Assembly (NCBI GenBank): GCA_000092065.1
Contig: CP000587.1
Length of the DNA stretch: 64,000 nucleotides
Direction: 5' to 3' (one strand)
From: Ostreococcus lucimarinus
Lineage: Eukaryota
Below the pieces are notes generated by a model that saw nothing but the letters and a program-made list of their open reading frames with translations, searched no databases and had not been told where the DNA came from. The position numbers and the translations under genes are program-made. Numbering within the stretch: the stretch's first letter is position 1; each line of letters begins with the position of its first letter. This document shows, piece after piece, positions 1 through 47,005 of this stretch.

Positions 1-1866
1 CTCGTCGAACATCTTTGAGCTCCATTCTATCTCATCGACGTTTGCCAGGTTGAGCTTCAGCGCTTGTTCGGCGACAATAGCTGGTATGTGATGTCGATTC
101 GTCGGCGGAACAAAATCCCACACCACCGATTCACAGATTCGTCCATCCTTGAAGCGACGGAGCTCGGACCGTTCGCCCCAAAACTTGCGAAATTCTTTAG
201 CTTCTTTGTCATCAGCCGAACTCGGACCGATGTCGACCAGTCGCAACGCGTGTTCAGGATCCAAAATTACCCCAACCCATATCTTGCACGATGCACTCCC
301 GACGGTGTCGACGCTCGAACTTTGCGGCTCAAACGCACGAACGAGTTTTGCACGATCGCTCAAAGCGCGAGTAACAATACGTGCTACGTCTGATTCTGCG
401 GTACGACGCCCACCCAAGTCACATTCGCCTTCATCTGCATTAACCATCACGTCGACGTGCATATGCAAATCGTACCGAACCGCGGCGGGACATTGGCCAA
501 GTAACACGTTGCTAAACGCGGAATGACTAGATCTCTTCAACTCAGACGCTGAAAGTATCGCCTCGTGAATTAGCTCCTGCACCGCGCTCGCAGACATTCT
601 CGCCATAATATTCACATGTCCACAAGGTCCAAGGAAAACGTTTGCGAAAGCGCGCTGCCACTCGCCCGCTTCTGCGGGTTTACCGCTTGCGTACAAACCC
701 TTCTTAAAGAAGCCAGGCTTAGCGAGCGCGTTAATCGCGGCCCGAAACATCTGGCTAGTGTCCATACTACTACTCAATTGACCACCTCGCTCTAGCATGT
801 ATGCGAAGAGCATCGAAATGAAAAATCCACTGACGCCATCCGCTGCGTCCAGCAACCGCCTTCCCTGCGCCCATCGCTTGAATAGCACCACCGCACCGGG
901 CAAACTCTTCGCTTTCTTCGATGCTGCGGCAAAGAACTGTGCATGCATGCGTGCATACATGTCTTCCGCGATGGACTGGTTGTAATGCGGGCTCGCCGGC
1001 CGCACGTCTCCCCGTGCCAGCCTTCGCACGTTTGCTCTGTTAGGCAACAATCGAACCGATGCGAAAGTTTCGGGGTCTATCGTCAAAAACAAACGAAGTG
1101 CTTTTTTATTTTGCTTTTCTCCAAAGTGTACCGTGATATACGGCTTCCTTGCATCGCGGTGCTGGTCCATCACTTCGCACGACCACTCGGACGACTTCGA
1201 CAACTTTTTATGCAACACGTCCAGGTACACCGCTCGCTTGAAGTGATACCTGTGATCTAAATAATCCTTTTCTTGAAAGAACGACCGAGGCATTTCTACC
1301 GCGACGTCCACGACGACCCCTCCGTCACCATTCATGGGTACGTTGAAGCACCCTCCCTCTGCGTGACTCCCAATCGAGACGACCCGCGTCGGCGGCGCGA
1401 ATTTCAACGTCTTCCCCTCCACCTCCTCGCACTCCACCGCAAACCACGCCGGTGATTTGGCTTTAATTTCCTTCTCTTTCAACTCTACGTCGGTGTGTCG
1501 TCGATCAAACGTCTCGTCAGTCTCGTTTCTTCGCGACTCGTTCGCCCGTTCGTCCTCGTCGTCCTCCTCGCGCGTCTTCGGTCTCAGTCATATGCTTGTC
1601 AATGTAAACATCACGAGGATATTCAGTTCTCAAAGATTAATATGTCTTCATCACCGACCGTCGACGCGCGTGGATGAGCCCTCGGCCCGGCTCCTCCTCG
1701 CTCACCGCGCGTTCGCTCGCTTCGTCGCACCTCGCACCGCCTCGCGCACCGCCCCGAGCGCGTCCTCGCTCGACGCCCGCGCGCGCGCTGTCGCCGCGCA
1801 TTCGTTCACGATCTCTCGCGCCAGCGTCTCGTCGTACGACGCGGCGGCGAACGCTTCGTCGTCCAT
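1..1866 (-). CDS. NOL6: Nrap/NOL6 (UTP22-family) nucleolar RNA-associated protein, N-terminal ~600 aa; the gene continues past the window start, so the 3' part is missing
   Basis: Translating the minus strand myself from ~1575 down to position 1 gives an open frame. It is absent from the ORF track because it runs off the edge. It carries Nrap-like blocks: ..RVVSIGSHAEGGCFNVP..VVVDVAVEMPRSFFQEKDYLDHRYHFKRAVYLDVL.., ..LFKRWAQGRRLL..GFFISMLFAYML.., ..KIWVGVILDPEHALRLVDIGPSSADDKEAKEFRKFWGERSELRRFKDGRICESVVW. A likely first exon lies at ~1866..1738 (ATG MDDEAFAAASYDE...). It would be joined through a ~162-nt GTGCGA...AG intron (~1737..1576) that removes two in-frame stops. Confidence 0.7.
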
Positions 1867-12780: not shown

Positions 12781-12796
12781 CGACTGAACGCGAACG

Positions 12797-13921
12797 ATGA
12801 CGACGACGTATTGGCTCGTGAGTCTACCTCTGCGCGGGTCGAGCGCGGACGCGGCGTGGGCGACGCTGCAGCGACACACGGGCGGGAGCAACGATCTGTC
12901 GCTGAACTATAAGATGCGATGCCCGGACCTGCGCGTGGGGACGCTGGACAGTCTGTTGGCGCTGAGCGATGATTTGGTCAAGGTGAACGCGCTGGCGGAG
13001 CAGGTGGTGGAGAAGGTGCGGCGACAGTTCGGCGAGCTCGGCGACGCGACGACGAGCGAACGAGAACTGCGCGTGGATGGTGAATCCGTCGAACGATATC
13101 TGACGACGTTCGAGTGGGATGAAGCGAAGAATCCGGCTCGACGAGCGTTGAAGGAGACGGTTGAGAAGCTCTCGGAGCGCTTGTCGCGCATCGACGAAGA
13201 GTTCAAATTGAAGTGCGGGCAGTTGGCGACGTCTAAAAATCATCTGAACGCCATCGTTCGTAAAGTTGGGAGCGGGGTGAACGCACAAGATTTGAGCGAC
13301 AAGGTCAATCCCGAGGATTTAGTTCAGACAGAAAACTTGACCACGCTCGTGGTGCAAGTGCCGAAACTGAAGACAGAGGTTTGGACGAGCTCGTACGAGA
13401 CGCTAGCGAGCTTCGTCGTGCCGCGTTCTTCAAAGATTATTCACGTCGAAGATGATTACGAGTTACGAACGGTGGTATTGTTCAGGCGTGTCGTCGATGC
13501 GTTCACGACCGCGGCGCGAGAGATCGGCTGCACTGCTAAGGAGTATTCGCACGATCCTGAAGCGTCGAGAGCGGCGAAATCGCAACGAGGTGCGCTAGAG
13601 CAAGAAGTTGTCCAGAGGAGAGATTCTTTGTTAGAGTGGTGTCAGATAAGCTACGGTGAGGCTTTTAGTACTATGATGCACGTGTGCACGGTGCGCGTAT
13701 TTGTGGAGAGTATTTTGCGCTATGGCTTACCGCCGGATTTTCAAGCCGTCCTCATGCGACCCAATATGAAGCACGTGAGCAAGCTGCGAAAAGTATTGAA
13801 TCAAGAGTTCGGCAAAGACGCCTCGTCGCATTGGGATGACGAAATCGGCGGTGATGAGAAATCTGGCGGCGGTTTGGTGGAAGACATGTACTCGTACGTG
13901 TCTCTGACAATGAAGGTTTAA
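12797..13921 (+). CDS. VHA-C: V-type proton ATPase subunit C
   Basis: MTTTYWLVSLPLRGSSADAAWATLQRHTG..LSLNYKMRCPDLRVGTLDSLLALSDDLVKVNALAEQVVEKV matches the V-ATPase C N-terminus motif for motif. The protein is 374 aa and the ATG at 12797 was checked. Confidence 0.9.
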   Translation: MTTTYWLVSLPLRGSSADAAWATLQRHTGGSNDLSLNYKMRCPDLRVGTLDSLLALSDDLVKVNALAEQVVEKVRRQFGELGDATTSERELRVDGESVERYLTTFEWDEAKNPARRALKETVEKLSERLSRIDEEFKLKCGQLATSKNHLNAIVRKVGSGVNAQDLSDKVNPEDLVQTENLTTLVVQVPKLKTEVWTSSYETLASFVVPRSSKIIHVEDDYELRTVVLFRRVVDAFTTAAREIGCTAKEYSHDPEASRAAKSQRGALEQEVVQRRDSLLEWCQISYGEAFSTMMHVCTVRVFVESILRYGLPPDFQAVLMRPNMKHVSKLRKVLNQEFGKDASSHWDDEIGGDEKSGGGLVEDMYSYVSLTMKV

Positions 13922-14040
13922 CAATGCTCGCAGCGACTAGCGCGCACACGCAACGATAGCATAGACATTAACGAATTCGCAACATCTTCATTGAAAAACA
14001 CTGCATCTACTATCTAAATTTGTCTGCCCTTTCCTCGAAA

Positions 14041-15624
14041 TTAACGGAACGAGAACAACTTACTGAACTTTTCAGCAACCTTGCTAGTCAAGTCGCTGCC
14101 CGATTGAGACTTCGTAACCGAGTCGTCAGCCTCCTGCAACTTGCGCTGTGCTTTCGCAACGCGGACTTCAATCTCTTTGAGAAGTTCAGTGGCTTCATCT
14201 TGGATCTCTCCCGCGCAATCTCGTCCCTCGGCATCCGTGGCGAGATCCGTGGCAATTTCGAAGTATGCCTTTGCCTCTTTGGAATTACCAACTTGCACGT
14301 AGTGACAAGCCAAAGCAACATTTTGTCGCGCCTTGAGCAGCATGACTTCTGCTTCACAGTCTACTTCGAATTCCTCGATATGCTTGTCGGCATCTTCGGG
14401 CTTGAGCCGGAGCAACATCGGCGCCGTTTCCATCAAGTCCTCGTAGTCGACAGTCGCGGCATCGTACATTCGAGCGAGATCGCCAAAATTCAGTTTCTTA
14501 TCAGCCTTCTCTTTCTTCGCGCGACCACTGAGCTTTTTGTCAAGCTGATCGCAAACGAACTTGTTTCGATCGATGAGTTTATCCTTAACGATCAGAGATA
14601 ACGCAATCTCGGTTAACTTGATGCGATCGGCTTTGTCTTCGTCATCCCCCTGCTGATACAGAGCCTTGGCAGTCTCCTTCTCGACGTCGTCGTTGAGTTT
14701 CATGCGAGCTTCATCGTAAAAGGCGATTCCCTTAGCGAATAACATGCCCGCCTTGTGCCCAGTGGCGTTCTTAAGCGCGTCAACCTTGGCCAAGCAGTCT
14801 TGCGCTTGAGCAATGAGCACGCGAGCGTCGCGGTTCTTGAGCTCGAAGTCCATCGCATGCCATCTAATTTTATCTTCAATCTCCGGTGGTGCCTCAACTT
14901 TCATGGTGAACACCTTATTTGATGACAAACCGATCGCGGCTTCCTTCTCCATGGCTTTCAAATCCGCCGTTCGACCTTGTTTGTAGTGCGCAAACCGAAC
15001 GAGGTCCGCGAGGTCCTCCGTTCGCTCTCGGTACAACTCCAAGCGCTTCTGATCCCCGAGCACACCGAGCTTGGCGTACGCAAGCTTTGCGCGAAGAAGT
15101 TTTGTAATAGCACCGACGTAATCCTTCCCTTGCTCCACCGCGCAGACGCCGCCTATGTAGTTGGCGTATGCGTCGCCCTCCAACGCCGTCTGGTCGTTTC
15201 CGAGTCGCTCGCAAAACGTCGCCAACTCGTTCGCGTGCGTCACCGCCTTCTTCAAACGACGAAGCATGTGCTGTCTTAGATCACTCCGCCTTCTCTTGAC
15301 GTTGGTTAAATCCTTCATCTCCATCGCATACGCCCACGCCCGTTCGCTTTGCACGAGCGGAACCAAAAGCGCGCGTTCGTCCGCGATCGTGTTTGCCACC
15401 AAAGGTTTCTTCACGAAGCGTCCTTTACCGTGCTTCATCTTGCACGCCTGGTACAAACGAGCAAGACGACGCGCGCAGTATCCTCGATATCGCGCGTAAT
15501 CGCGGTGTCGTAGCCCGTGCTCACGCTGCGCTGCGGAGATGATCGAGAGAATCTCCAGGGACACATTCGACAGCACAGGTTCCGCGGGCGCGGTGTCGAC
15601 CTGCATGGTGTCCACGGTATCCAT
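14041..15624 (-). CDS. SRP68: Signal recognition particle 68 kDa subunit (SRP68)
   Basis: ..SLEILSIISAAQREHGLRHRDYARYRGYCARRLARLYQACKMKHGKGRFVKKPL.. is the SRP68 RNA-binding-domain signature, and the TPR-like helical remainder fits. The track start at 15711 is a GTG. The first ATG lies at ~15624 (MDTVDTMQVD...). Confidence 0.8.
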   Translation of the reverse strand: MDTVDTMQVDTAPAEPVLSNVSLEILSIISAAQREHGLRHRDYARYRGYCARRLARLYQACKMKHGKGRFVKKPLVANTIADERALLVPLVQSERAWAYAMEMKDLTNVKRRRSDLRQHMLRRLKKAVTHANELATFCERLGNDQTALEGDAYANYIGGVCAVEQGKDYVGAITKLLRAKLAYAKLGVLGDQKRLELYRERTEDLADLVRFAHYKQGRTADLKAMEKEAAIGLSSNKVFTMKVEAPPEIEDKIRWHAMDFELKNRDARVLIAQAQDCLAKVDALKNATGHKAGMLFAKGIAFYDEARMKLNDDVEKETAKALYQQGDDEDKADRIKLTEIALSLIVKDKLIDRNKFVCDQLDKKLSGRAKKEKADKKLNFGDLARMYDAATVDYEDLMETAPMLLRLKPEDADKHIEEFEVDCEAEVMLLKARQNVALACHYVQVGNSKEAKAYFEIATDLATDAEGRDCAGEIQDEATELLKEIEVRVAKAQRKLQEADDSVTKSQSGSDLTSKVAEKFSKLFSFR

Positions 15625-15791
15625 CGCTCGCGCGACCGACGCTACCGACGTCGATTCGTTTCGCGGTCGCGACGCGCGGTGGTCTCGTCGCGAGCACGGA
15701 CGCGAGTGCACGTTTTGGAATGAAGACTGTCTTAGGGCAACAGAACTCGGCGTGTGCGTTTCTCAACGTTTTGAATAAATATAACAAATGC

Positions 15792-16574
15792 TTAAATGGC
15801 ACCGATGTTTTTCAGGAGCGCGGTGTGAGTCGGGAACGGGTCCGATTTACCATCTGCGATCGCTTTTTCGGATAAGCCGTAGAAGTAACCGTTTCGCCAA
15901 GGAAATTCCTTGACGCCGCACGGGAAATGTGCGACAGTCTTTGCGTACGCGATCAGTCGATCGACGGCTCCGGGGGCGAATTTCGCCCCAGTGCACGCGG
16001 TAGTACCAGACAACAATTCTTCGATCAAAGCCACGACTTCATCTTTGTACGTCGTCGCGACGTCGCCAACCTTGGCGCCTTCGTGTTGAGCGCCGACCAG
16101 CATCATCGCGCAAATCCATATCAATTTCTCGTACATGGAACCTTCGTACGTCGGAGCGTCTAAAACGTGGCAACTCAAATCACCGTTATGGAAACGCGCG
16201 GCGACGGCGTCGGCCCACTTGCCCGTCGCCGCCGTGAGACCTTCGGGGTTTAACTCAGTTACCCCGTCGGTTGGCTTGTCGCCGAGAGCGGCGACCGCAA
16301 AATAAATTAGCGCTTGAGTGTTCGCCCCAAGACCTTGCGCATCGAGAAACTGCTGCAGCATCCCGTTTTGCATGAAAACCAAATCTTCTCTGCGGTCGGC
16401 CGGACAATTTTTGATCACATCTTCCAGCACGTCGTTGCGAGTGGCGACGTAAATCGGCCCCGTCTTGGGCTCGCTCGGAAACGCCTCGCCTCGGCGCACG
16501 ACGACGTCGCCCTCGACGCCCATATCCCTCAACGCTTGCCCGACGCGTCCACCACCGATGATAATGGACGGCAT
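15792..16574 (-). CDS. NAD(P)-binding Rossmann-fold protein (ketopantoate-reductase/ApbA-like N-domain)
   Basis: GxGxxG motif MPSIIIGGGRVGQALRDMG. The true ATG is the second codon of the track ORF (~16574). A (GATTG)-type motif sits ~70 bp upstream on the same strand. Confidence 0.45.
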   Translation of the reverse strand: MPSIIIGGGRVGQALRDMGVEGDVVVRRGEAFPSEPKTGPIYVATRNDVLEDVIKNCPADRREDLVFMQNGMLQQFLDAQGLGANTQALIYFAVAALGDKPTDGVTELNPEGLTAATGKWADAVAARFHNGDLSCHVLDAPTYEGSMYEKLIWICAMMLVGAQHEGAKVGDVATTYKDEVVALIEELLSGTTACTGAKFAPGAVDRLIAYAKTVAHFPCGVKEFPWRNGYFYGLSEKAIADGKSDPFPTHTALLKNIGAI

Positions 16575-16863
16575 CACTTCACCTTTCGTCGCGTTCTGCG
16601 CGCGCGACGTTCACACGTCAGTCATTAATCCACGTCTGCAAATCAATCGGCGCGTGGCGGGGTCGCGTCGATGCGTCCTGAACGCACCGTCATGACGCTC
16701 CAGACGCGTCGAACGGAGGTTTTCGCGGCGTGAACGCGAGCGTTAGGGACGATGTTTACTTTCGCGATCGCAGCGTTGGCGTGCATAACGATCTGCGCGC
16801 GCTGGACTGAGGCGCTTCTCGACAGGTGGGGGCTTCGTGTTTTTACAAATATCCACACACGAA

Positions 16864-17919
16864 TCACTCGCGTTGGAGCGCTCGCTCGGCTAAGTACAGG
16901 GCGCTCGTGAGACCGGTTTGATAGCCCCACGCGGGAGGAACGATGAAGTGTCGTAAATAAGCATCGTCCATGATTTGATCGACGGCTAGGTAGCCCTGCA
17001 AGATGTCTCGGACGTTGGCACGAATCTTGCTGAATAAGCACTCGCGCTGCATGACGCCACCGCCGAGGACGATGCGCTCAGGGGCGAGGGTTAAGATGAG
17101 ATTGACGCACATGCCGGCAAGATAATGTGCGGCATGTTCCCAAATGTCATCGTCATCCGGAAGCGATGCGAGCTCGGCGGCTGAGACGCCCCGTCGTTTT
17201 GCCAACGCTCCGCTTCCGACCATGCCTTCCACGCAGTTGCCATGAAACGGACACGTTCCCGCAAACGTTTCCCCTGCTCTCATCTTGACGAACATGTGAC
17301 CCGCCTCAGGATGTAGCATACCGTGCACTGGTAAGCCATTGCACACCACACCAACCCCGACGCCCGTACCCACGGTGACGTAACAACACGACTCGCCGCC
17401 CACGAGATGGACGTGTTTCAACTCGTGTTTCAACGCCCTATGTTCCAACATCGCCGGCGCATTGACGTCCGTTTCAAACGCCAAAGGCACCTGATCGATC
17501 GTGTGCAATCGAGCGCGTCCTCGCCACGCCCTTTCCTCCTCCTCCGTCGCGTCCTTTTTCCCGAACAGACTGCCCAAGACGTCGACGTCTTGCCACCCCG
17601 CCTTCGGCGTCGTCGTGATGTATCCGTACTTGTCTTTATCTGGATTCAGCTCCAACGGCCCGAAAGTCGCCACCCCGATCGCATCCGCGTCCCACGCGTT
17701 GATTTCGATCCACTCTCGTATCGTTCGCAGCGTCTCCTCCGGCGTCGTCGTCTCAAACCTCTGTTCCCGCCCGCCGTCCCTCTTGTTGAAATGCTCCTCC
17801 CCTCGCGCGCTCGACGCGCTGCTCACGCTCGCACCGCCCTCGACGTCGATCTCGATCGCGCGCGCGATCCACGTCGTCCCTCCGCCTTCGATCCCGAGCA
17901 GTTTCATCCGCCTGCCCAT
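16864..17919 (-). CDS. ROK-family sugar kinase (fructokinase / N-acetylglucosamine-kinase-like)
   Basis: MKLLGIEGGGTTW (ATP-binding start), ..LVGGESCCYVTVGTGVGVGVVCNGLPVHG.. and the ROK zinc motif HPEAGHM...GTCPFHGNCVEG. The track start at 18102 is a GTG. The first in-frame ATG is at ~17919. Confidence 0.75.
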   Translation of the reverse strand: MGRRMKLLGIEGGGTTWIARAIEIDVEGGASVSSASSARGEEHFNKRDGGREQRFETTTPEETLRTIREWIEINAWDADAIGVATFGPLELNPDKDKYGYITTTPKAGWQDVDVLGSLFGKKDATEEEERAWRGRARLHTIDQVPLAFETDVNAPAMLEHRALKHELKHVHLVGGESCCYVTVGTGVGVGVVCNGLPVHGMLHPEAGHMFVKMRAGETFAGTCPFHGNCVEGMVGSGALAKRRGVSAAELASLPDDDDIWEHAAHYLAGMCVNLILTLAPERIVLGGGVMQRECLFSKIRANVRDILQGYLAVDQIMDDAYLRHFIVPPAWGYQTGLTSALYLAERALQRE

Positions 17920-18198
17920 CGCGCGCGCTCGCGCGTCGGCGCGCGTCGAGCAATCCCAATCGTTCGCGCGCGGCAACGACCGCGGTCGGTCGGTCGGTCG
18001 GTCGTCGGTCGCGGTCGGTCGACGCGCGTTCGAAATCGCGTACAACGCGTAAATGCGCGCCCAAGAGACGCGCGCGTGCGCGTCGTCATAAGTCTTAAAC
18101 ACTGATCACAAACACGGACACCACGGCCCGATCGCGCGCGCACGCCCTCGCCCTCGCCCCGTCGCATCGACCTCTTTACGCGACGCGAGCGACGAGAC

Positions 18199-18780
18199 AT
18201 GGGTAAGAAAGGAAAAGGTACCGGGTCCTTCGGTTCCCGACGTAACAAATCGCACACTCTGTGCCGACGGTGCGTGTGCGCTCGAGACGACGCGCGCGAC
18301 GCGAGGGAGGCGACGACGCGGGAAGACGACGGTGACCCTAGTAGGGCTTTGGGATGACGACGACTGACGACGACGACGCGACGCCGACGCGTCGTTCGCG
18401 CGCGCAGATGCGGGAAGCGATCGTACCACATTCAAAAGTCTACGTGCGCGGCCTGCGGGTATCCGTCCGCGCGGACGCGTTCATGTACGTGTGCACGATG
18501 CGAAGTCGACTCGACTCGATCGCGGCGGAGCGTCGATCGCGGGCGACGAGCGCCGCGAGACGTGGCGTCTCGCGACGCGCGACGGCGAGCGAGAGCTCGA
18601 AGCGCGCGAGATTGGTGACTGACCTTTCCTTGTTTTCAACGCACAGACAACTGGAGCGTGAAGGCGATCGGCCGCAAGACCACGGGTACCGGCCGCATGC
18701 GCTACTTGAAGACCTTGCCCAGAAGATTTAAGAATGGTTTCCGGGAAGGTACGGAGGCGAAAAAGAAGGTCGCTGCGTAA
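18199..18780 (+). CDS. RPL37: 60S ribosomal protein L37e with three exons, ~18199..18269, ~18408..18484 and ~18647..18780
   Basis: Exon 1 is [23 protein letters not shown], ending at a GTGCGT donor. Exon 2 is (R)[25 protein letters not shown], ending at a GTACGT donor. Exon 3 is [44 protein letters not shown]. The spliced product is a full canonical L37e with its C4 zinc finger. It is anchored to the track ORF 18354..18731, which reads exon 2 out of frame. Intron 2 has a TGACTGAC branch, a pyrimidine tract and a CAG acceptor. Confidence 0.9.
18270..18407 (+). other. RPL37 intron 1 (GTGCGT...CAG)
   Basis: It contains GGGCTTTGGGATGACGACGACTGACGACGAC. The GGG(C)TTTGG(G)AT plus GACTGACGA motif is shared with the transketolase and eIF3a introns. 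Confidence 0.8.
18485..18646 (+). other. RPL37 intron 2 (GTACGT...GGTGACTGACCTTTCCTTGTTTTCAACGCACAG)
   Basis: Classical donor, branch, pyrimidine tract and acceptor are all present. Confidence 0.85.
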
Positions 18781-19019
18781 ACGCGACGTGGTTTCTTTTA
18801 GCGGGGAAGAGTAGGGCGAGTTCTTTTAGGAAGACGAATTTCGAGATGAGTAGTGGGTTGTAACACGATGCGTACTCGGTTGGAATTTTACCTCGAACGA
18901 GTCGACGACGCGCGGGCGAGACGACGACGCGCGCGTCGGTGGCGCGCAAACGCTTGGATGTCGCGCTAAGCTGGCTATATATTCTTACGACATAACTCGG
19001 ACTACGAATTTGAGTCGCG

Positions 19020-19967
19020 TCACATGATGTTGTTGTCGCGCATCAATTTGCGCACTTGCTCGAGCGTCAGAAACATGCACACGTTCCAGCCCCCGAGTCT
19101 GGCAAAGTTGGGTAAGAACCCACCGTAGAACGCCATCGGACCCTCGTTTGCGAGCGTCTTCGTGACGCAATCGACGAAACCTTTGTACTTACCCGTGCTA
19201 TCTCCCATCACTCGCGATTTAACCACGTCCACCGGGCTCCCGACGCAGCACGCGACGAATCCCGCGCCCAACGCCGAGGCGATGTGCGTGACGACGTCGT
19301 CCTTCATCCCCACGCCCAAGAAACTTTGCTTGAACTGATCGTACGACGCGAGCTCGGCGGCATTAACAATCGAGTTACGCATGATGTTGGGCGTCAATCC
19401 CGTCCACAGCGCGGCGAGGCCCTCTTGCCTGACGATGACGCCGTACGCCCCGACTGCGCTTGGATACTTTTTCGGCGTCCCCGGCGCGAGTTTTCCCTCC
19501 GCTTGCATGCGAACCTTGACCAAATCCGTCGGCGACGCCACCATTATCCCAATCCCACCCGTCGTGAGCCCCGCCGCGATTTTCAGGTGCAAGGGCACGT
19601 CCCCCACGTGTTCCTCGCCGACGTAAAACGTCTTCACGGGTTCGTACAACCCGATGCGCAAGCCGCCGAACAGCACCTGGCGATGGATCCCCGGGGTGAT
19701 TCCTTTCCACAGCGCCCCGATCCCCTCCTCCGCCGCCACCGCGCGCATCGTTCCGAGCATCCCAGCGCCCCGGCCGCGCGTCGTCGCCGTCGCCGTCGCG
19801 CTCGCGCCTCGCAGCTGCAGTCGCACCTTGACCGTGTCGAGAGGAATCGTGCAAAACTCCGCGAACGACGCCGAGAACGCGCTCGCGGCGAGGCCGCCGA
19901 GGAAGGGATTCACGAGCGGCGTTTTCGTTTTCGTTCTCGTCGCCGTCGCGTCGCCCTCGCGCGCCAT
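19020..19967 (-). CDS. Mitochondrial carrier family protein (uncoupling-protein / dicarboxylate-carrier-like)
   Basis: Three carrier repeats carry the P-x-[DE]-x-x-[KR] signatures (PLDTVKVRLQ, PTDLVKVRMQ, PVDVVKSRVM). The track start is a GTG. The first ATG is at ~19967 (MAREGD...). Confidence 0.85.
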   Translation of the reverse strand: MAREGDATATRTKTKTPLVNPFLGGLAASAFSASFAEFCTIPLDTVKVRLQLRGASATATATTRGRGAGMLGTMRAVAAEEGIGALWKGITPGIHRQVLFGGLRIGLYEPVKTFYVGEEHVGDVPLHLKIAAGLTTGGIGIMVASPTDLVKVRMQAEGKLAPGTPKKYPSAVGAYGVIVRQEGLAALWTGLTPNIMRNSIVNAAELASYDQFKQSFLGVGMKDDVVTHIASALGAGFVACCVGSPVDVVKSRVMGDSTGKYKGFVDCVTKTLANEGPMAFYGGFLPNFARLGGWNVCMFLTLEQVRKLMRDNNIM

Positions 19968-20224
19968 CTCGAGACCCCGCGCCGAACGCGCGACGCGACG
20001 CACTGCGGACGACAGCCCCGCGCGCGCGCCGACCGACCGACGACTGGGCGACGCGGGATCGTCCTGGGGTTCATCCTGGGGTTCAGGCTGAATCCTCGAT
20101 TATTTTTAGCGATCGTCGAGACGCCCTCTCGTCGCGCATTGAAGGATGCGAATGCGCCGTGATGTGTCCCCTCCGCGCGCGACCGCGACCGCGACGCCAC
20201 ACGGCGACGCGCGACGTCACGCGC

Positions 20225-39139: not shown

Positions 39140-40372
39140 CTAAGTTTTGAGTTTCTCTTTCTTTTGTCTATCTTGAATCCGAGCTGGATCGTTTCGTTTT
39201 TTCGTGCTAAATCTTCCCACGCCGTCTTCGTAGTGGTGCCTGTCACTCTTCACAATCTGCACCACGTCCTCGTCTTCCAAGTCGTGCTTGAGTCCGACGC
39301 GTTGGCCGTAGTGCTTCGGCGACGTGCCCCAGACCAAGGCGTACTTGAGCTGCCGAGGCAAATCCGCGTGAAGCTGCGCGCAGAAGTGTTTGACCGCGAT
39401 GCCACCGCGAGAATCACTCAGAACGACCGGCTCCTCGAAATCGGGCTTCGTCCCCATCTTTTTCGTGTACACGCGCACCAATCCCATGGCGTCCCACACG
39501 CGCTTCAGCAAGTAGTCCATCCCAAGATTCATGTAGCACGAGATGCAGACGGAATCTGGTCGTCGCGAAAGTGTGTTCACTTCCTCGATCGTCAACGCGT
39601 CCACCTTGTTGTACACGTACAAACAGCGCACGTACTTTCTATTCCCTTCCAAGACGTCGATGAGTTGGTCGACGTCGCAGTCCTCTCGAAACAGCACTTC
39701 GGCGTGGTGTATCTTGTACTCTTGCAACACCCGAATCACCGTCTTTTCGTCAATTTTCGTCAGCCCGCCAGGAACGGTGGAATTCAGCTGCACTCCACCC
39801 GCCTTTTTCTTCTTCCAGTAAATCCCCGGCGGCTTTTTATTCAACCGCAATCCGACGGCTTCGAGCTCGCGCGTGAGAATGTCCTTGTGCGCGTATCGCG
39901 AATTCGCCGCCTCCGACTTGCACGCATCCAGCACCATGAGAATCAAATCCGACGACTTGGCCACCGCGATAACTTGTCGTCCGCGTCCCTTACCCTCGCT
40001 CGCGCCTTCTATGATTCCAGGTAAATCCAGAAGCTGTATCTTCGCGTCGTTGTAGTGAATCACGCCGGGTATGCACGTCAGCGTGGTGAACTCGTACGCC
40101 GCCGCTTCGCTCTCCGTGCCCGTCAATTGGCTCAACAGCGTCGATTTCCCGACGGATGGAAATCCAATCAGCGCCACGCGCCCGTGCCCGTATTTCACGA
40201 CGTCGAAACCTTCGCCCGGGCCGCTTCCGGCCGCTTTCGGCGGGTTCAAGAGCTCCGACCGAAGCTTGCACAGGCGCGCCTTGAGCGCGCCCAGGTGCGA
40301 ACTCGTGGCTTTATTCTTCTGCGTGCGCGACATCTCGAGCTCGATGTCCTTGATTCGCTCCAAGATACCCAT
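39140..40372 (-). CDS. DRG: Developmentally regulated GTP-binding protein (DRG; Obg-class GTPase with TGS domain)
   Basis: MGILERIKDIELEMSRTQKNKATSSHLGALKARLCKLRSELL.. (the DRG N-terminal helix), G1 GFPSVGKST, G3 DLPGIIEGA, ..YNKVD.., and a TGS-like ..VWGTSPKHYGQRVGLKHDLEDEDVVQIVK. The ATG at 40372 was checked. A ~35-aa extension lies beyond the usual C-terminus. Confidence 0.9.
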   Translation of the reverse strand: MGILERIKDIELEMSRTQKNKATSSHLGALKARLCKLRSELLNPPKAAGSGPGEGFDVVKYGHGRVALIGFPSVGKSTLLSQLTGTESEAAAYEFTTLTCIPGVIHYNDAKIQLLDLPGIIEGASEGKGRGRQVIAVAKSSDLILMVLDACKSEAANSRYAHKDILTRELEAVGLRLNKKPPGIYWKKKKAGGVQLNSTVPGGLTKIDEKTVIRVLQEYKIHHAEVLFREDCDVDQLIDVLEGNRKYVRCLYVYNKVDALTIEEVNTLSRRPDSVCISCYMNLGMDYLLKRVWDAMGLVRVYTKKMGTKPDFEEPVVLSDSRGGIAVKHFCAQLHADLPRQLKYALVWGTSPKHYGQRVGLKHDLEDEDVVQIVKSDRHHYEDGVGRFSTKKRNDPARIQDRQKKEKLKT

Positions 40373-40595
40373 GGTGCGAGAGGTTCAAGGGGGAGACGCG
40401 GCGAACGCGCTCGCGCCGCGTTGTGGCGAACGCGCGAGCGGGACGAGCGACCGCGACCATCGCGAAACCGCGACGAGCGTACCGATGACGACAGACGGTA
40501 ATTATTGTACAAGTACACTGAAAACTACTACTATTTCGTGCGCGTCCTCGCTCGCACGGTGCGAGCGCTCGCGCCGCGGATTCGGCGCCTCGCCG

Positions 40596-41275: not shown

Positions 41276-42010
41276 TCATTCGTCCATGCGCGGCGACGAG
41301 ACGAAAAAGCCGTCGCTGTCGAAGAGGCGCTCCATCGAGCTCGCGCGCGCGATGTTCAACGTTTCGGCGAAAGCCTCGTCGTCGTACCCTTTGGCGTCGA
41401 TCGTCATCCCCGTGAACGAGCCGTCGACGCCCGAGAGACTTTGTAAAAACTCCTTCGACGCGCTGTCGAGATGCGGACCCCTGGGCGTGCTGAGCGTCGA
41501 CGTCAACTCTTCGTTTCGCGCGCGCAACTCTTCGTACTCGGCGCGCAACGCCTCCACCTCCGCGGACAGCGCGTTCACCCTCGTCAACGTCTCCTCGCAC
41601 GTCTGCTCTAACTCCACCATTCTCCGCATCTTCTTCATCCTCGATTTGGCCGCCGACAACCGATTCGCCTGCATCCTCCTCTCTCTCTTCTCCTCCTCCG
41701 TCGTCGTCCCCCCGTTCGCCCCCCTCGGCTCCTCGAGCACCGTGCGCAGCGACGGCTCGTGCGCGTCCGCCTGCGAGTACGACCGCGCCCGCGCGTGATG
41801 CGCCGGCGCCCCGATCACCGTCGGCGGCAATCCCTGCCGCGCGCTCGTCTCGCGCCCCTTATCGCTCCCGCCTCGTCCCGCCTCGCGCGCCCACGCGCTC
41901 GTCTGCGCGCTCTCCAGGCTCTCGCTCAGCGACCGCTCGTGTCTCGGCGCCCCCCACTCGCGCTCGCCGTTCGCCTCCGCGCGCGGGCTCGCGAGCGGCG
42001 ATATCTCCGA
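41276..42010 (-). CDS. bZIP transcription factor
   Basis: Basic region and leucine zipper: ..EEKRERRMQANRLSAAKSRMKKMRRMVELEQTCEETLTRVNALSAEVEALRAEYEELRARNEEL... The probable start is MSEISPLASP (~42010). The upstream in-frame part of the track ORF is a (TNER)n / RTRE low-complexity run from a (CGTT)n repeat. Confidence 0.7.
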   Translation of the reverse strand, partial: SEISPLASPRAEANGEREWGAPRHERSLSESLESAQTSAWAREAGRGGSDKGRETSARQGLPPTVIGAPAHHARARSYSQADAHEPSLRTVLEEPRGANGGTTTEEEKRERRMQANRLSAAKSRMKKMRRMVELEQTCEETLTRVNALSAEVEALRAEYEELRARNEELTSTLSTPRGPHLDSASKEFLQSLSGVDGSFTGMTIDAKGYDDEAFAETLNIARASSMERLFDSDGFFVSSPRMDE

Positions 42011-42020
42011 CATCCCTCGC

Positions 42021-42090
42021 GTTCGTTCGCGCGTTCGTTCGCGCGTTCGTTCGTTCGTTCGTTCGTTCGTTCGTTCGTTCGTTCGCGCGT
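42021..42090. repeat. (CGTT)n / (CGTTCGCG)n simple repeat
   Basis: cgttcgttcgcgcgttcgttcgcgcgttcgttcgttcgttcgttcgttcg... read directly. All three minus-strand frames read through it in the track as RTNE / NERA / TNAR tracts. A related (CGTT/GGTT)n tract is at ~46910-46948. Confidence 0.85.
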
Positions 42091-42273
42091 TCGCGCCTCT
42101 CGACGAAACGCGCCCTCGATCCGCGCGACGCCCTCGATCGCGCCCTCGATCGCGCCCTCCCGCTTCCCGCTTCCCGCGCCGCGCGCGTCGTTCCGACGCG
42201 TCGAGACGCGCGCGCGCCGACCCAATCCATCCCACGCGCGCGCGCGTTCGAACGAATCCTCCGACGTACTCGG

Positions 42274-42293
42274 CTAAACCCTAAACCCTAAAC
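42274..42293 (+). promoter_or_regulatory. Interstitial telomere-like repeat (CCCTAAA)x2.7, a plant telo-box-like AAACCCTAA, followed by A10, ~240 bp upstream of the eIF3a ATG
   Basis: ggctaaaccctaaaccctaaacgcgctttcgtcgaaaaaaaaaataaagATG read directly. It is the only such string in the window. Confidence 0.5.
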
Positions 42294-42531
42294 GCGCTTT
42301 CGTCGAAAAAAAAAATAAAGATGGCGCGCGACGCGCCCGCGATACGCGACGAAACGACGCGATCGGCCGTCGTATTACAGACGCGCGCACGGCGAACGCG
42401 ACGACGACGCGAGGATCGACCGACCGAACGAACACACGGACCGTCGCGATCGCGGCGGCGACGGCGGCCCGCGCGATCGATCGGCGAGCGGCGCGCGGCA
42501 GACGACGGCGCGGCGTCGGGCGACGGGCGCG

Positions 42532-45500
42532 ATGTCGCGGTACATGGGGAACTTCGCGCGACCGGAGAACGCGATCAAGCGCGCGGTGCGCGCGACGCGA
42601 CGACGACGACGCGACGCGGGACGACGACCGACGGGGGACGGGAGAGGGTTTGGATTTGAGATTCGAGCGCGCGGCGACGACGGGAGGGGCGAAGCGAAAG
42701 GACGAGGGCGCGCGAAGACTGACGAGACGTCGCATCGATCGGACGCGCGGTGCAGGAGGAGCTGATCAACGTGGGACAGAAGCAGGCGGCGCTGCTGTCG
42801 CTGCACGAAATCGTCACCAGTCGGCGAAACAGGCAGTGGACCAAGGTTCTCGAGGAGGTCATGTTCAAGTACGTCGAGCTGTGCGTCGAGCTGAAGAAGG
42901 GCAGGCTGTGTAAGGATGGGTTGATGCAATATCGCAACACGTGCTTGCTGGTGAACGTGCAGTCGCTCGAGGAGGTGGTGAAGCGATTTTTGAAGCTCTC
43001 GACGGAACGCGCGGAGACGGCGCAGGCGGAGTTCGGCGCTACTCTCGACGCGGACGTCGATCTCGAGGCCGAGTTCACGCCAGAGTCGCTGTTGGCGAAG
43101 GCGTATCGACTCGACCACGAGAACGAGGCGACGGAAAAGGAAACGGTGACGCCGTGGTTCAAGTTTTTGTGGGAAACGTATCGCAACTTGCTCGACATCT
43201 TACGCAACAACAACAAGCTCGAGGGTTTGTACGCCATGGTCGTGAAGGACGTGTTCAAGTTTTGCCTCAAGCACAAGCGCACGACCGAATTCAGGCGCGC
43301 GTGCGACTTGATGCGAACGCACTTGAACAACATGGTCAAGTACAAGGATATGCGCGACAGACCGGATTTGAGCTTACCCGAGACGCAAAATCTCTACATG
43401 GAAGTGCGTTTCGAACAGCTGAAGGCGGCTACGACGCTTGAAATGTGGCAAGAAGCGTTCCGATCGATCGAAGACATTCACGGGTTGATGCTCTTGCTTC
43501 GCCGTTCGCCCAAGCCGCAGATGATGGCGTTGTACTTTGCCAAGTTGACGGAAATTTTCTGGATTGGTAAAAATTACCTCCACGCCGCGTACGCGTGGAT
43601 GAAGCTTTACAGCGTTAGTAAAACGTATAACCGCAGCTTGACCCCTGAAGACGAACGCGCGTTGGCTTCGGGTGTCGTGTTGGCGACGATGTGCATAACG
43701 CCGTACACTGAAAAGTCCGTCTTTGGCGACATGGACTCCGATCATCAATTCGATCGCGACTCTCGCATGGCAAGTTTGCTCGGTTACCACATCGATCGTA
43801 GTCGCAGCATCAGCGATGTGCTCTCGCGTGAATTGTTGGCGGCCGAGATCAAGCGCAGCGGTTTGTTGGCCAAGGTGGACGACGACGTCAAGCGTTTGTA
43901 CGCCCTCATGGAGCAAAGCTTTTCCCCGCTCGATCTGTGCAAGAAGGCTGACGTGTTGTTTAACGTGTTACAAGGCACGACAATTGAAGTCAGTGAAGCC
44001 TCGCCGGTTTCCTCTTTCGACTTCAACTCGTTCTTACCGAGACTGAGATCGCTCGGCATTATTCGCATGGTGCACCAGCAATCCAAGGTGTTCGAGACGA
44101 TGAAGATTGATTCTTTGAAATCCTCCGTGCCGTTCATGCCGTATCACGAAGTCGAGCGTATTCTCGTACAAGCGATTCGAAGTGATTACATTTCCGTTCG
44201 AATCGACCACGAGACTGGATCGATGAACTTTGTCGGCGATCGCCTCGAGACGGGTTTCGTCAAGACGCACCTCTCTCGCGCCGCTCGTCTTTTGCAAGAA
44301 GGCATGAGCAAGCTCGCGCCCAAGACACCCGCCGATGTCGGCGCTCGTGTACTCGGTGCCGAATTGCGCGCCGCCATCGAGGCCGAACACAAGCGTGCGC
44401 TGGCGCGCAAGGTGGTCATCGAGCGCCGCAAGGAGGAAGCCGAGCGCGCCGCCGCTGAGCAAGAAAAGGAGGAAGAGGCTAAGCGCGTCGCCGCGCAGCG
44501 CAAGCACGAAGAAAACGAGGCCAAGCGCCTCGAACAAGAAGCTCGTGCTCGCGAAGAGAAGAGAATTCGTGCGGAAATGGAGGAAAAAGAGAAACAAGAG
44601 GCTCTCGAGTTGCTCGCCGAGCAAGCCAAGCGCGCTGGCAAAAAGGCGCCGATTGTCCTCGAGGAGGGCGTCGTCCTCGACAAGCGAGCCATCATGCAAG
44701 ATGCTATTCAAGAACAAATCAAGGCGCGTCAAGAGCAAGAACGCAAATTGAACAGTCTCGCTAAACGCATGGATCACGTCGAACGTGCCAAGCGCGAAGA
44801 AAGTATCAGTCTCATCGAGAAGGCGTACAAGGAGCGATCGGTGGATGACGAAAAGTACCACGCCGAACAACAAGTCGCGATGGCTGCGAAACATCGCGCC
44901 AAGTGGGAGGCGGAGAGCGCAGAAAAGCAGCGTTTGATGCGTATGGAAGGTCCGCGTGCCGAGTTCGCGCGTGGTGTCATGATTCGTCGGGCCGAGCAAT
45001 TCGCCGCTCAAGAGGAGGAACGCGCGAGAAAGCTCGAGCAAATGAAGAAGCACAAGGAGGCTGAACGCTTGCTCCAAGCGAAAAAAGATTACATCAAGCG
45101 TCTCCAAGACATCGAGGCTGCGGTGAAGCACGAAAAGCGCGAAAAGGATCGCATCGCGCAAGCTGAAAGACGTCGTCAACAAGAAGAAGAGGAAGCTGCT
45201 AGAAGACAACGCGAACAACCGCCGGCACGCGGCGGCGACGATCGCTGGGGCGCGTTCGCTGGGAGCGCGTTCGGCGAGCGTCGTCGGGTCGACGAAGCCC
45301 CAGCGCGACCTCCGTCAGGTGGTAGCCGATGGGAACCGTCAAGAGGTGGTGATCGTTACGAGCCTCGTCGCGACGACGGCCGGGGCGGCGGATTCGGAGA
45401 TCGCGATCGCGCGCCGTCGAATAGATGGGAGCGAGGCGGCGGCGATCGCCCGCCGTCGAGAAGCGGCGATGACCGCCCGCCGTCGAGAAGTGGCGGTGCT

Positions 45501-45563
45501 GACGATGGGAAATATCGCCCGCCTCGACGCGACGATGCACCGTCTAGAGGAGGAGGTTGGTAG
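42532..45563 (+). CDS. EIF3A: Eukaryotic translation initiation factor 3 subunit A (PCI domain plus long charged helical tail and an RG/RD-rich C-terminus), two exons, ~42532..42585 and ~42756..45563
   Basis: Exon 1 is MSRYMGNFARPENAIKRA (the eIF3a N-terminus is M..YF.RPENALKRA), ending at a GTGCGC donor. A ~170-nt intron has a GAAGACTGACGAG branch and a GTGCAG acceptor. Exon 2 is EELINVGQKQAALLSLHEIVTSRRNRQWTKVLEEVMFKYVELCVELKKGRLCKDGLMQYRN..., colinear with eIF3a including the PCI region. Both parts are anchored to track ORFs 42532..42765 and 42750..45563. Confidence 0.9.
42586..42755 (+). other. eIF3a intron (GTGCGC...CAG)
   Basis: It shares GGGTTTGGAT..GAG..GCGCGG and ..GACTGACGA.. with the transketolase intron. 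Confidence 0.8.
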
Positions 45564-45644: not shown

Positions 45645-46301
45645 TCACGCTCGGCGCCGCGTCATGTGCACCGAATCTATATTAATGTTACGCGTCAGCG
45701 CTCGCGCGCGCAAAAATTTGAAAATATTCTCCAAGAGCGCTTCACAAACCTCGGCCGACGCCCCGGAGCCGGAGACGCCGAGATACGTAATCGAATACGT
45801 CGCGTCTCCGGTCTTTTCCACGTGCTTTTGAAGTCGCCCGATCCCCGACCCCGACGTGCACTTGTAATACGCTCTTGGATACTTCTGCCCACTCAAAAAC
45901 TTATTTCCGTACTTGCGCCATCGAAACCCATCGTCCAGCCGAGTCGGATCTTCGCTCGTTTTCACCTCGACGATGCGCGCGTCGCCGCGCGCCGTCGCCG
46001 TCGTCGCCGTCGCCGTCGTCATCTCGCGCCGCTTCCGCGACGATTTCGCCGTCGACCGCGCCTTCTTCACCCCCCCCTCCTCCGACGCGCGACTCAGCGG
46101 CGCCCTCACCCCCCTCCCACCCTCCCCGCGTCCCTCCGCGAACCCCACGCACAGCGCCTCGAGCGATCGCTCGAATTTCTCCAGCCGTCCCCCGAACGTC
46201 CCATTCGGATCGTCGTTCTGATCCCGCGCCTCCCAGAACCCGTCGTCGTCCAGCGCGCTCCACGTCGACGTCCCCTCGCGCGCCGCGCGCGTCGTCCCCA
46301 T
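45645..46301 (-). CDS. WRKY-like DNA-binding domain protein with a divergent domain that lacks the C2H2 zinc ligands
   Basis: ..DDGFRWRKYGNKFLSGQKYPRAYYKCTSGSGIGRLQKHVEKTGDATYSITYLGVSGSG... The WRKYGQK-type heptad (WRKYGNK) and PR.YYKCT are conserved. The second Cys and the HxH are replaced. The probable ATG is at ~46301 (MGTTRAAREG..). Confidence 0.55.
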   Translation of the reverse strand: MGTTRAAREGTSTWSALDDDGFWEARDQNDDPNGTFGGRLEKFERSLEALCVGFAEGRGEGGRGVRAPLSRASEEGGVKKARSTAKSSRKRREMTTATATTATARGDARIVEVKTSEDPTRLDDGFRWRKYGNKFLSGQKYPRAYYKCTSGSGIGRLQKHVEKTGDATYSITYLGVSGSGASAEVCEALLENIFKFLRARALTRNINIDSVHMTRRRA

Positions 46302-46486
46302 CGCCGATCGCGCCTCCCCGTCGTCCCCGCGCGTCGTCCGCGCGACGCTAAACATAGCCGCCTCGTCGTCCTCGCGCGCCGCGCGCGTCGTCGCCGCCGC
46401 CGACCCGCGTCCTCGTCGACGCCCTCGCGCTCGACGCGCGCGTCACTATTATTATTATCGCGTGTCCACCGATCGCGTTTTCGTCC

Positions 46487-46909: not shown

Positions 46910-47005
46910 GTCGTTCGTTCGTTGGTTCGTTCGTTCGTTGGTTCGTTGGTCGATTGATTGATTGATTGCTCGATCGCGCGCTCGATCGGTCGATCGGTCG
47001 GTCGC
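46910..47005. repeat. Composite simple-repeat block, (CGTT/GGTT)n then (GATTG)n then (GATCGGTC)n, in the WRKY/B56 divergent intergenic region
   Basis: tcgttcgttcgttggttcgttcgttcgttggttcgttggtcgattgattgattgattgctcgatcgcgcgctcgatcggtcgatcggtcggtcg read directly. It lies ~110 bp upstream of the B56 ATG. Confidence 0.85.

Follow-up and report, generated by a model that had tools for sequence, protein, structure and literature searches.

The locus described here raises the question of whether a short run of telomere repeats upstream of a translation-factor gene is an inherited regulatory element or something younger. The run lies in a 64,000-nucleotide stretch of DNA from Ostreococcus lucimarinus (the window) and is identical in sequence to the plant telo-box, AAACCCTAA, which is found in eEF1A, ribosomal-protein and ribosome-biogenesis promoters of Arabidopsis and rice. 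An earlier note, made from the sequence alone, placed it in the promoter of eIF3a and suggested that the regulatory logic is conserved across the green lineage. The features of the region are as follows.

41276..42013, minus strand: bZIP transcription-factor gene (245 aa, MSEISPLASP...; ATG at 42013-42011)
42014..42531, no strand: divergent intergenic spacer from the bZIP start codon to the eIF3a start codon (518 bp; hypervariable among strains)
42044..42083, no strand: (CGTT)10 microsatellite in the bZIP 5' region (5-18 copies among strains)
42274..42293, plus strand: short interstitial telomere repeat, ctaaaccctaaaccctaaac (2.7 units of CCCTAAA, with two overlapping AAACCCTAA telo-box 9-mers)
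42306..42320, plus strand: A10 run plus TAAAG, which may serve eIF3a as a TATA-like element; begins 12 bp 3' of the tract
42532..45563, plus strand: eIF3a gene (exon 1, 42532-42585; intron 1, 42586-42755; exon 2, 42756-45563)
42645..42651, plus strand: AGGGTTT in eIF3a intron 1 (telo-box core on the opposite strand, gAGGGTTTg), kept in the conspecific contigs inspected

The eIF3a gene was identified by its Pfam eIF3a_PCI_TPR-like and PCI domains and by strong homology to plant eIF3a, and its 90%-identity protein cluster includes O. lucimarinus CCE9901 XP_001418782. The splice was deduced from the conserved N-terminus M..FA.PENA.KRA|EELINVGQ, which is common to eight aligned Mamiellales eIF3a genes. 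The divergent neighbour, for which Pfam bZIP_1 was matched on the identical gene in other contigs (L008, L010 and others), was missed in the earlier note. The tract lies at approximately the midpoint of the 518 bp spacer (bZIP start codon to tract, 260 bp; 3' end of the tract to the eIF3a start codon, 239 bp) and its attribution to eIF3a alone is therefore arbitrary. The G+C content of the spacer is 69% and it contains (CGTT)10, several (CG)n runs and the A10 run. CGTT/GGTT repeats resembling (CGTT)n are also present in the spacer between the WRKY and B56 genes (46920-46965). The eIF3a locus is internal: in L020 and L024, contigs of approximately 760 kb, one end is approximately 55-60 kb away. 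These contigs may be whole chromosomes, in which case the locus would be moderately near a chromosome end.

The window reads ctaaaccctaaaccctaaac at 42274-42293, and the description of this string as 2.7 units of the plant-type telomere repeat, matching the plant telo-box in a promoter-like position upstream of eIF3a, is correct. It is also, as claimed, the only such string in 64 kb: AAACCCTAA is found solely as the overlapping copies at 42276 and 42283, where a mean of 0.09 matches is expected by chance (dinucleotide-preserving shuffles of the 64-kb window). The 14-mer CCCTAAACCCTAAA has a single exact copy in the window, at the tract, and a scan with all rotations of the 7-nt unit found no other run of consecutive telomere-unit 7-mers in the window. 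The distance to the eIF3a initiation codon (ATG, 42532-42534), given as approximately 240 bp, was measured as 239 bp, and AAACCCTAA reads on the eIF3a sense strand. The A10 run had been described as directly adjoining the tract; it is at 42306-42315, and 12 bp (gcgctttcgtcg) intervene. The earlier note allowed for the organism using a different telomere repeat. This is not the case, as the Ostreococcus telomere is of the Arabidopsis type, TTTAGGG (PMC3318450), and the O. lucimarinus motif is listed as CCCTAAA (PMC8287931, Table 1). Additionally, OlPOT1 binds GGGTTTAGGGT (PMC2794166). Because the tract is the organism's own telomere repeat, it is a genuine short interstitial telomere repeat and not a look-alike of a foreign motif.

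In order to see how the tract varies within the species, 21 contigs (window included) from different metagenome samples were compared, with eIF3a DNA at least 99.65% identical. The eIF3a DNA of the conspecific contigs differs from that of the window by 0.03-0.35%, indicating that they represent one species. The contigs were retrieved by exact eIF3a protein sequence and the allele frequencies given here are therefore biased. The alleles at the tract are as follows.

Allele A, ggCTAAACCCTAAACCCTAAACgcgc: 2.7 units, 11/21 contigs (window, L008, L010, L015, L019, L021, L024-L027 and L020, the last one A shorter)
Allele B, ggCCCTAAACCCtttt, which carries CCCTAAACCC: 1.4 units, 1/21 (L014)
Allele C, ggCCCCgcgc or gaCCCCgcgc/gaCCCGgcgc: 0 units, 5/21 (L001, L002, L012, L013, L016)
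Allele D, 146-bp deletion of window 42264..42409: 4/21 (L011, L017, L018, L022)

The deletion in allele D takes out the tract, the A-run and approximately 90 bp downstream, leaving a spacer of 372 bp as against 518 bp. In two further scaffolds (L009, L023) there are N-gaps at or across the relevant part of the spacer. All the resolved contigs, including those with allele D, encode full-length eIF3a with the protein sequence by which the contigs were retrieved. Since allele D lacks A10-TAAAG in four independent assemblies and yet eIF3a is intact, the core promoter of eIF3a must be elsewhere or be flexible. Among gap-free contigs the spacer ranges from 371 to 536 bp, with 5-18 copies of CGTT, an A-run of 10-13 and 0-2.7 telomere units. 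This is unlike the RPL37 promoter and first intron, where there is a single SNP across six conspecific contigs.

The order in which the alleles arose cannot be read from the spacer itself with confidence, because the sequence of the sister species, used as the outgroup, barely aligns (MAFFT) and its AAACCTAA falls on the A-run and not on the tract. Polarity was taken from linked SNPs over 5.5 kb, with the sister species as the outgroup, an argument that presumes little recombination across the 5.5 kb. Over this distance divergence is 0.05% between A haplotypes, 0.04% between A and D and 0.03% between D haplotypes; it is 1.6% between C haplotypes and 1.2% between A and C. One derived SNP (alignment column 170) is common to all A, B and D haplotypes; the derived SNPs of columns 987 and 2643 extend to some C haplotypes (L016, L012) as well. 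The SNPs nest A, B and D within the C haplotypes, suggesting that the tract is a derived gain and that CCCC is ancestral. On this reading of the haplotypes, and barring recombination, the tract was acquired recently, and the background that acquired it later gave rise to the 146-bp deletion.

Among the tract-less haplotypes, L012 is strongly divergent in the region of the WRKY gene that lies downstream of eIF3a (up to 4.8% over 5.5 kb), and gene calling gave no WRKY gene in L012:6300-6600 (window equivalent, 45645-46355). This points to a divergent or disrupted allele of the WRKY region in L012.

Taken together, the data make it reasonably probable that the tract is a young, segregating short interstitial telomere repeat in an indel-prone promoter common to bZIP and eIF3a. 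Judged from the junctions, telomerase probably made it during the repair of a break. The promoter would be nucleosome-poor and indel-prone, and the tract would have been gained in the repair of a break that opened in the C4/G4 run (allele ggCCCCgcgc). On the G-strand, the empty site ...aaagcgcGGGGcc would have become ...aaagcgcG-TTTAGGGTTTAGGGTTTAG-cc: a 3' end finishing in G could have been extended in register by telomerase for approximately 19 nt, after which end joining could have closed the break, 2-3 nt being lost. The tract is no clean insertion but substitutes 18 nt for CC, and the G-strand junction, as read by eye, is gcgcGGGGcc in the empty site and gcgcG+TTTAGGGTTTAGGGTTTAG+cc in the filled one. 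Allele B needs extra steps. It (ggCCCTAAACCCtttt) is not derivable from A or C in one step, so a later rearrangement of an unstable tract is likely. An independent origin of alleles A and B was considered and dropped: B has the derived SNP of the A/D haplogroup, which makes common descent followed by rearrangement as likely as independent origin.

Telomerase acting at promoter breaks has been proposed as a route to the plant telo-boxes (Gaspin, Rami, Lescure 2010; PMC3022908). In that model promoters are break-prone, telomerase extends free 3' ends and microsatellites gather at the same places (PMC3022908). The spacer fits the model in having one or few units at a recombination-prone promoter, with the tract, (CGTT)n, (CG)n and the A-run side by side. 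The model was derived from fixed motifs in two angiosperm genomes, whereas here there is a segregating allele together with its empty site, in a chlorophyte. In mammals, telomere repeats have been inserted at sites of double-strand-break repair and some are polymorphic in populations (PMC2246262, PMC7215372). The tract resembles these interstitial telomeric sequences (Nergadze et al.; PMC2246262, PMC7215372) in consisting of a few exact units at an internal site, with an orthologous empty site, a small loss at the junction and insertion polymorphism within the species. It differs from them in belonging to a green alga with TTTAGGG, in having only 2.7 units, in lying in a compact bidirectional promoter and in having no flanking sequence derived from telomerase RNA.

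The WRKY-B56 spacer of the sister Ostreococcus contains CTAAACCCT in L114-L123 (6915-6930) as against CCCTAAAATAAACCCTAAACCCT in L003 (4800-4830), and both lengths are anchored by the identical downstream sequence cgatgtgatcggacatgtgg. The WRKY-B56 tract is a second example of a change in telomere-unit copy number at a fixed site, here between close lineages.

We also looked for the motif at orthologous promoters. Neither AAACCCTA nor AAACCCT was found upstream of eIF3a in the sister Ostreococcus (11 contigs), two further Ostreococcus lineages (L004-L006, L007), three Micromonas lineages (L108, L109/L110, L111) or Bathycoccus (L112, L113). The sister Ostreococcus has a fixed near-telomeric tcAAACCTAAtaaaaga approximately 150 bp upstream of eIF3a, which MAFFT does not align with the tract; this sequence could hint at an older element. 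The other genes of the window that bear on the question are given below.

1-1587, minus strand: Nrap, ribosome-biogenesis gene, running past the start of the window
18199..18780, plus strand: RPL37 gene with two introns; a control, and the sole ribosomal-protein gene found in the window
39143-40384, minus strand: DRG GTPase gene

There is no telo-box at Nrap or DRG of the window, nor in the window's RPL37 promoter, and RPL37 intron 1 has only a degenerate gaccctagtagggcttt. Additionally, neither of the plant partner motifs, site II (TGGGCY) and the tef1 box, was found in the 518-bp spacer; site II occurs at 0.41/kb across the window. The claim of conserved regulatory logic is not supported for the eIF3a tract, which is missing from 9/21 conspecific haplotypes and from all the other Mamiellales lineages examined. 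Polymorphism within the species and absence at the orthologues are together inconsistent with conservation, and on the sequences compared a role for the tract as a conserved, inherited regulator of eIF3a is not supported. The genes of the window likewise give no sign, at this local scale, that the motif is enriched at translation genes.

In RPL37 intron 1 of the window (18335-18355) there is a sequence, gACCCTAgTAGGGCttt, that consists of two inverted half telomere units. It lies approximately 25 nt upstream of actgac, which we read as a likely branch site, and is in the same relative place as the TTAGGGTTTT of L101 described below.

The earlier note proposed that RPL37 and other ribosomal-protein promoters be checked, and here the outcome was divided: RPL37 of the O. 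lucimarinus window has no telo-box, but RPL37 of Micromonas has a conserved TTAGGGTTTT. In nine G+C-rich loci from three sublineages (L028-L035, L037), the RPL37 proteins of which cluster with Micromonas bravo/commoda/pusilla, ccTTTTAGGGTTTTcc is present 185-270 bp upstream of RPL37 in 9/9. Within it TTTTAGGGTTTT is invariant in the three sublineages (e.g. L032:6560-6600, L030:9715-9760), and the motif block is identical while the downstream sequence diverges. In L101, an intron-bearing, Micromonas pusilla-like locus, gcTTAGGGTTTTcg is found in RPL37 intron 1 instead, again with TTAGGGTTTT (L101:340-365). The motif is thus present at RPL37 in four Micromonas lineages, upstream in three and in intron 1 in one. 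It belongs to the same motif family as the O. lucimarinus tract, and both are at translation-apparatus genes in the same algal order. The Micromonas motif differs from the tract in being a single unit (TTAGGGTTTT), invariant across sublineages and in the opposite orientation relative to the gene.

The core is also found within eIF3a. At the position in intron 1 homologous to that of gAGGGTTTg in O. lucimarinus, three Micromonas lineages have cAGGGTTTc, cAAACCCTg and aAAACCCTt (L108:9868, L109:9902, L111:9855). The background frequency of AAACCCT/AGGGTTT in Ostreococcus/Micromonas is approximately 1 per 10 kb. The presence of the core in the eIF3a introns (approximately 135-385 bp) of 4/8 lineages has a chance probability of approximately 1e-5 to 1e-4, a figure that precedes correction for post hoc choice and treats as independent Micromonas lineages that are not. 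The core is present in the 5' region of Nrap in three Micromonas loci as well. In Bathycoccus-like loci (L055, L058, L060, L074-L076, L112, L113; 46% G+C) neither AAACCCT nor AGGGTTT was found in approximately 20 kb each. In the literature searched there is no report of the telo-box or AAACCCTA as a promoter motif in Ostreococcus, Micromonas, Chlamydomonas or Mamiellales, and no earlier report of the Micromonas RPL37 motif.

The orientation of the intron 1 core flips between L108 and L109/L111, which looks like a 9-bp inversion preserving the motif. Other telomere-like tracts in related loci flank unrelated genes, namely WRKY-B56, a RING-finger gene, V-ATPase C and SRP68. The tract at L032:14372 was considered as an element of RPAC1 (Pol I/III subunit) and rejected, as it is approximately 960 bp from RPAC1 and 141 bp from the RING-finger gene. 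The tract at L032:5727 was likewise set aside as promoter support because it belongs to the coding sequence of a gamma-tubulin-complex (GCP) gene.

How far, then, could the tract act as a telo-box at all? The insert constitutes a perfect double telo-box and would be a candidate site for Myb proteins that bind double-stranded telomere DNA. Two such telomere-binding Myb proteins, of TRFL class I, are known from O. lucimarinus (XP_001421395.1, XP_001416857.1; PMC3400083). Like the plant element, the tract is in the 5' flank of a translation-factor gene, in sense orientation and near a TATA-like box, and it equals the organism's telomere unit. Unlike the plant element, it is polymorphic, dispensable within the species, derived and not found at orthologous promoters; it lacks site II and tef1 partners, translation genes nearby lack the motif and the TRB readers are reported only from streptophytes. 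That it is nonetheless an inherited cis-element tying eIF3a to a translation-apparatus regulon, as in land plants, appears very doubtful. It is favoured by two exact, sense copies of AAACCCTAA, which have an A-rich TATA-like box at 12 bp and the start codon at 239 bp, by the location of plant telo-boxes between -60 and +140 of the transcription start in Arabidopsis (PMC2576244), by the TTTTAGGGTTTT and TTAGGGTTTT of Micromonas RPL37 and by the cores in eIF3a intron 1 of three Micromonas lineages and O. lucimarinus. However, the tract is a derived state, conspecific haplotypes that lack it, some by deletion of the whole segment, have an intact eIF3a, and no other Mamiellales lineage examined has a tract upstream of this gene. 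The RPL37, Nrap and DRG genes of the window have no motif and the spacer has no partner motif. The TRB proteins, which read the telo-box in plants, are reported to originate in streptophyte algae (PMC12616469), and the coordination of ribosomal-protein genes by the telo-box has been described as specific to land plants (PMC3212954). A recent insert that alters expression of eIF3a and/or bZIP, and has risen in frequency for that reason, is conceivable but unlikely. Consistent with it, the tract is the commonest allele (11/21) and its haplogroup is uniform (0.05% as against 1.6% among tract-less haplotypes); it lies 12 bp upstream of the TATA-like A-run with AAACCCTAA on the eIF3a sense strand, TRFL proteins that bind double-stranded telomere DNA exist in the species (PMC3400083), and Micromonas shows that the motif can persist at translation genes in this algal class. 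Against this, allele frequencies are skewed by the mode of retrieval, and the uniform haplogroup also includes the 146-bp deletion that destroys the tract (4 contigs). A deletion allele within the tract haplogroup indicates that there is no strong purifying selection on the tract there.

Two further explanations were weighed. In a spacer this rich in simple repeats ((CGTT)n, (CG)n and the A-run), the tract might be thought a coincidence or a product of ordinary microsatellite slippage with no link to telomeres, but this is highly improbable: the match to the telomere repeat is exact over 20 nt, the 9-mer alone is expected 0.09 times in shuffles, the 14-mer has a single exact copy, and in the tract-less alleles slippage would have had no CCCTAAA unit to start from. 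A template region of telomerase RNA, or another non-coding RNA, would account for a C-strand repeat on the plus strand, which is what a template would contain, and in our own reading of the sequence TCCCAC approximately 45 bp upstream of the tract resembles the plant USE. The likelihood of this is practically nil. The tract is absent or deleted in 9/21 strains, which is impossible for an essential gene, its 2.7 units exceed the length of a template (approximately 1.5 units) and it precedes the TATA-like box, which a template would follow; there is no USE of the O. lucimarinus type (CCCRTAA; PMC8287931) upstream and no Rfam match in 41500-43000 at E <= 1. The polymorphism, the side of the TATA-like box on which the tract lies and the Rfam result together rule it out.

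Returning to the young interstitial telomere repeat, the allele data suggest that eIF3a expression would not require the tract. As a regulator of eIF3a the tract is probably of little importance, since the species can dispense with it, and its regulatory effect is at most optional; in the strains that carry it, it may modulate one or both of the flanking genes. A filled site, an empty site and a near-identical background that later deleted the tract together give a rare opportunity to study in nature how telomere-like promoter motifs originate, and the alleles are ready-made material on whether a telo-box acts in a chlorophyte.

The telomere-type motif conserved in Micromonas, both at RPL37 and in intron 1 of eIF3a, is a hint in favour of the wider hypothesis and bears on the age of telo-box logic. 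In the literature searched, telo-box control of ribosomal-protein genes is treated as a feature of land plants (PMC3212954) and the TRB readers are placed in streptophytes only (PMC12616469). Speculatively, and with the odds against it, a telo-box regulon of translation-apparatus genes could be older than land plants and active in Mamiellophyceae. It would have been kept in Micromonas (RPL37, eIF3a intron 1 and Nrap), lost in Bathycoccus and be in flux in Ostreococcus, and it would be read by TRFL-type Myb proteins and not by TRBs; the O. lucimarinus tract would then be an element caught at birth. If true, telomerase seeding of a promoter motif, the process set out in the Gaspin-Lescure model, would here be seen for the first time at the population level.

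Finally, the order of genes in the region is largely common to these lineages. V-ATPase C, SRP68, ROK and RPL37 are adjacent in Ostreococcus (window 12788-20099) and in the Bathycoccus-like L052 (42% G+C), and a mitochondrial carrier follows RPL37 in Ostreococcus and Micromonas (L032). In Micromonas (L108-L111), SRP68, B56, eIF3a and Nrap are linked as well. The G+C content of the Micromonas eIF3a loci is 53-56%, as against 67-72% for the Micromonas RPL37 loci.
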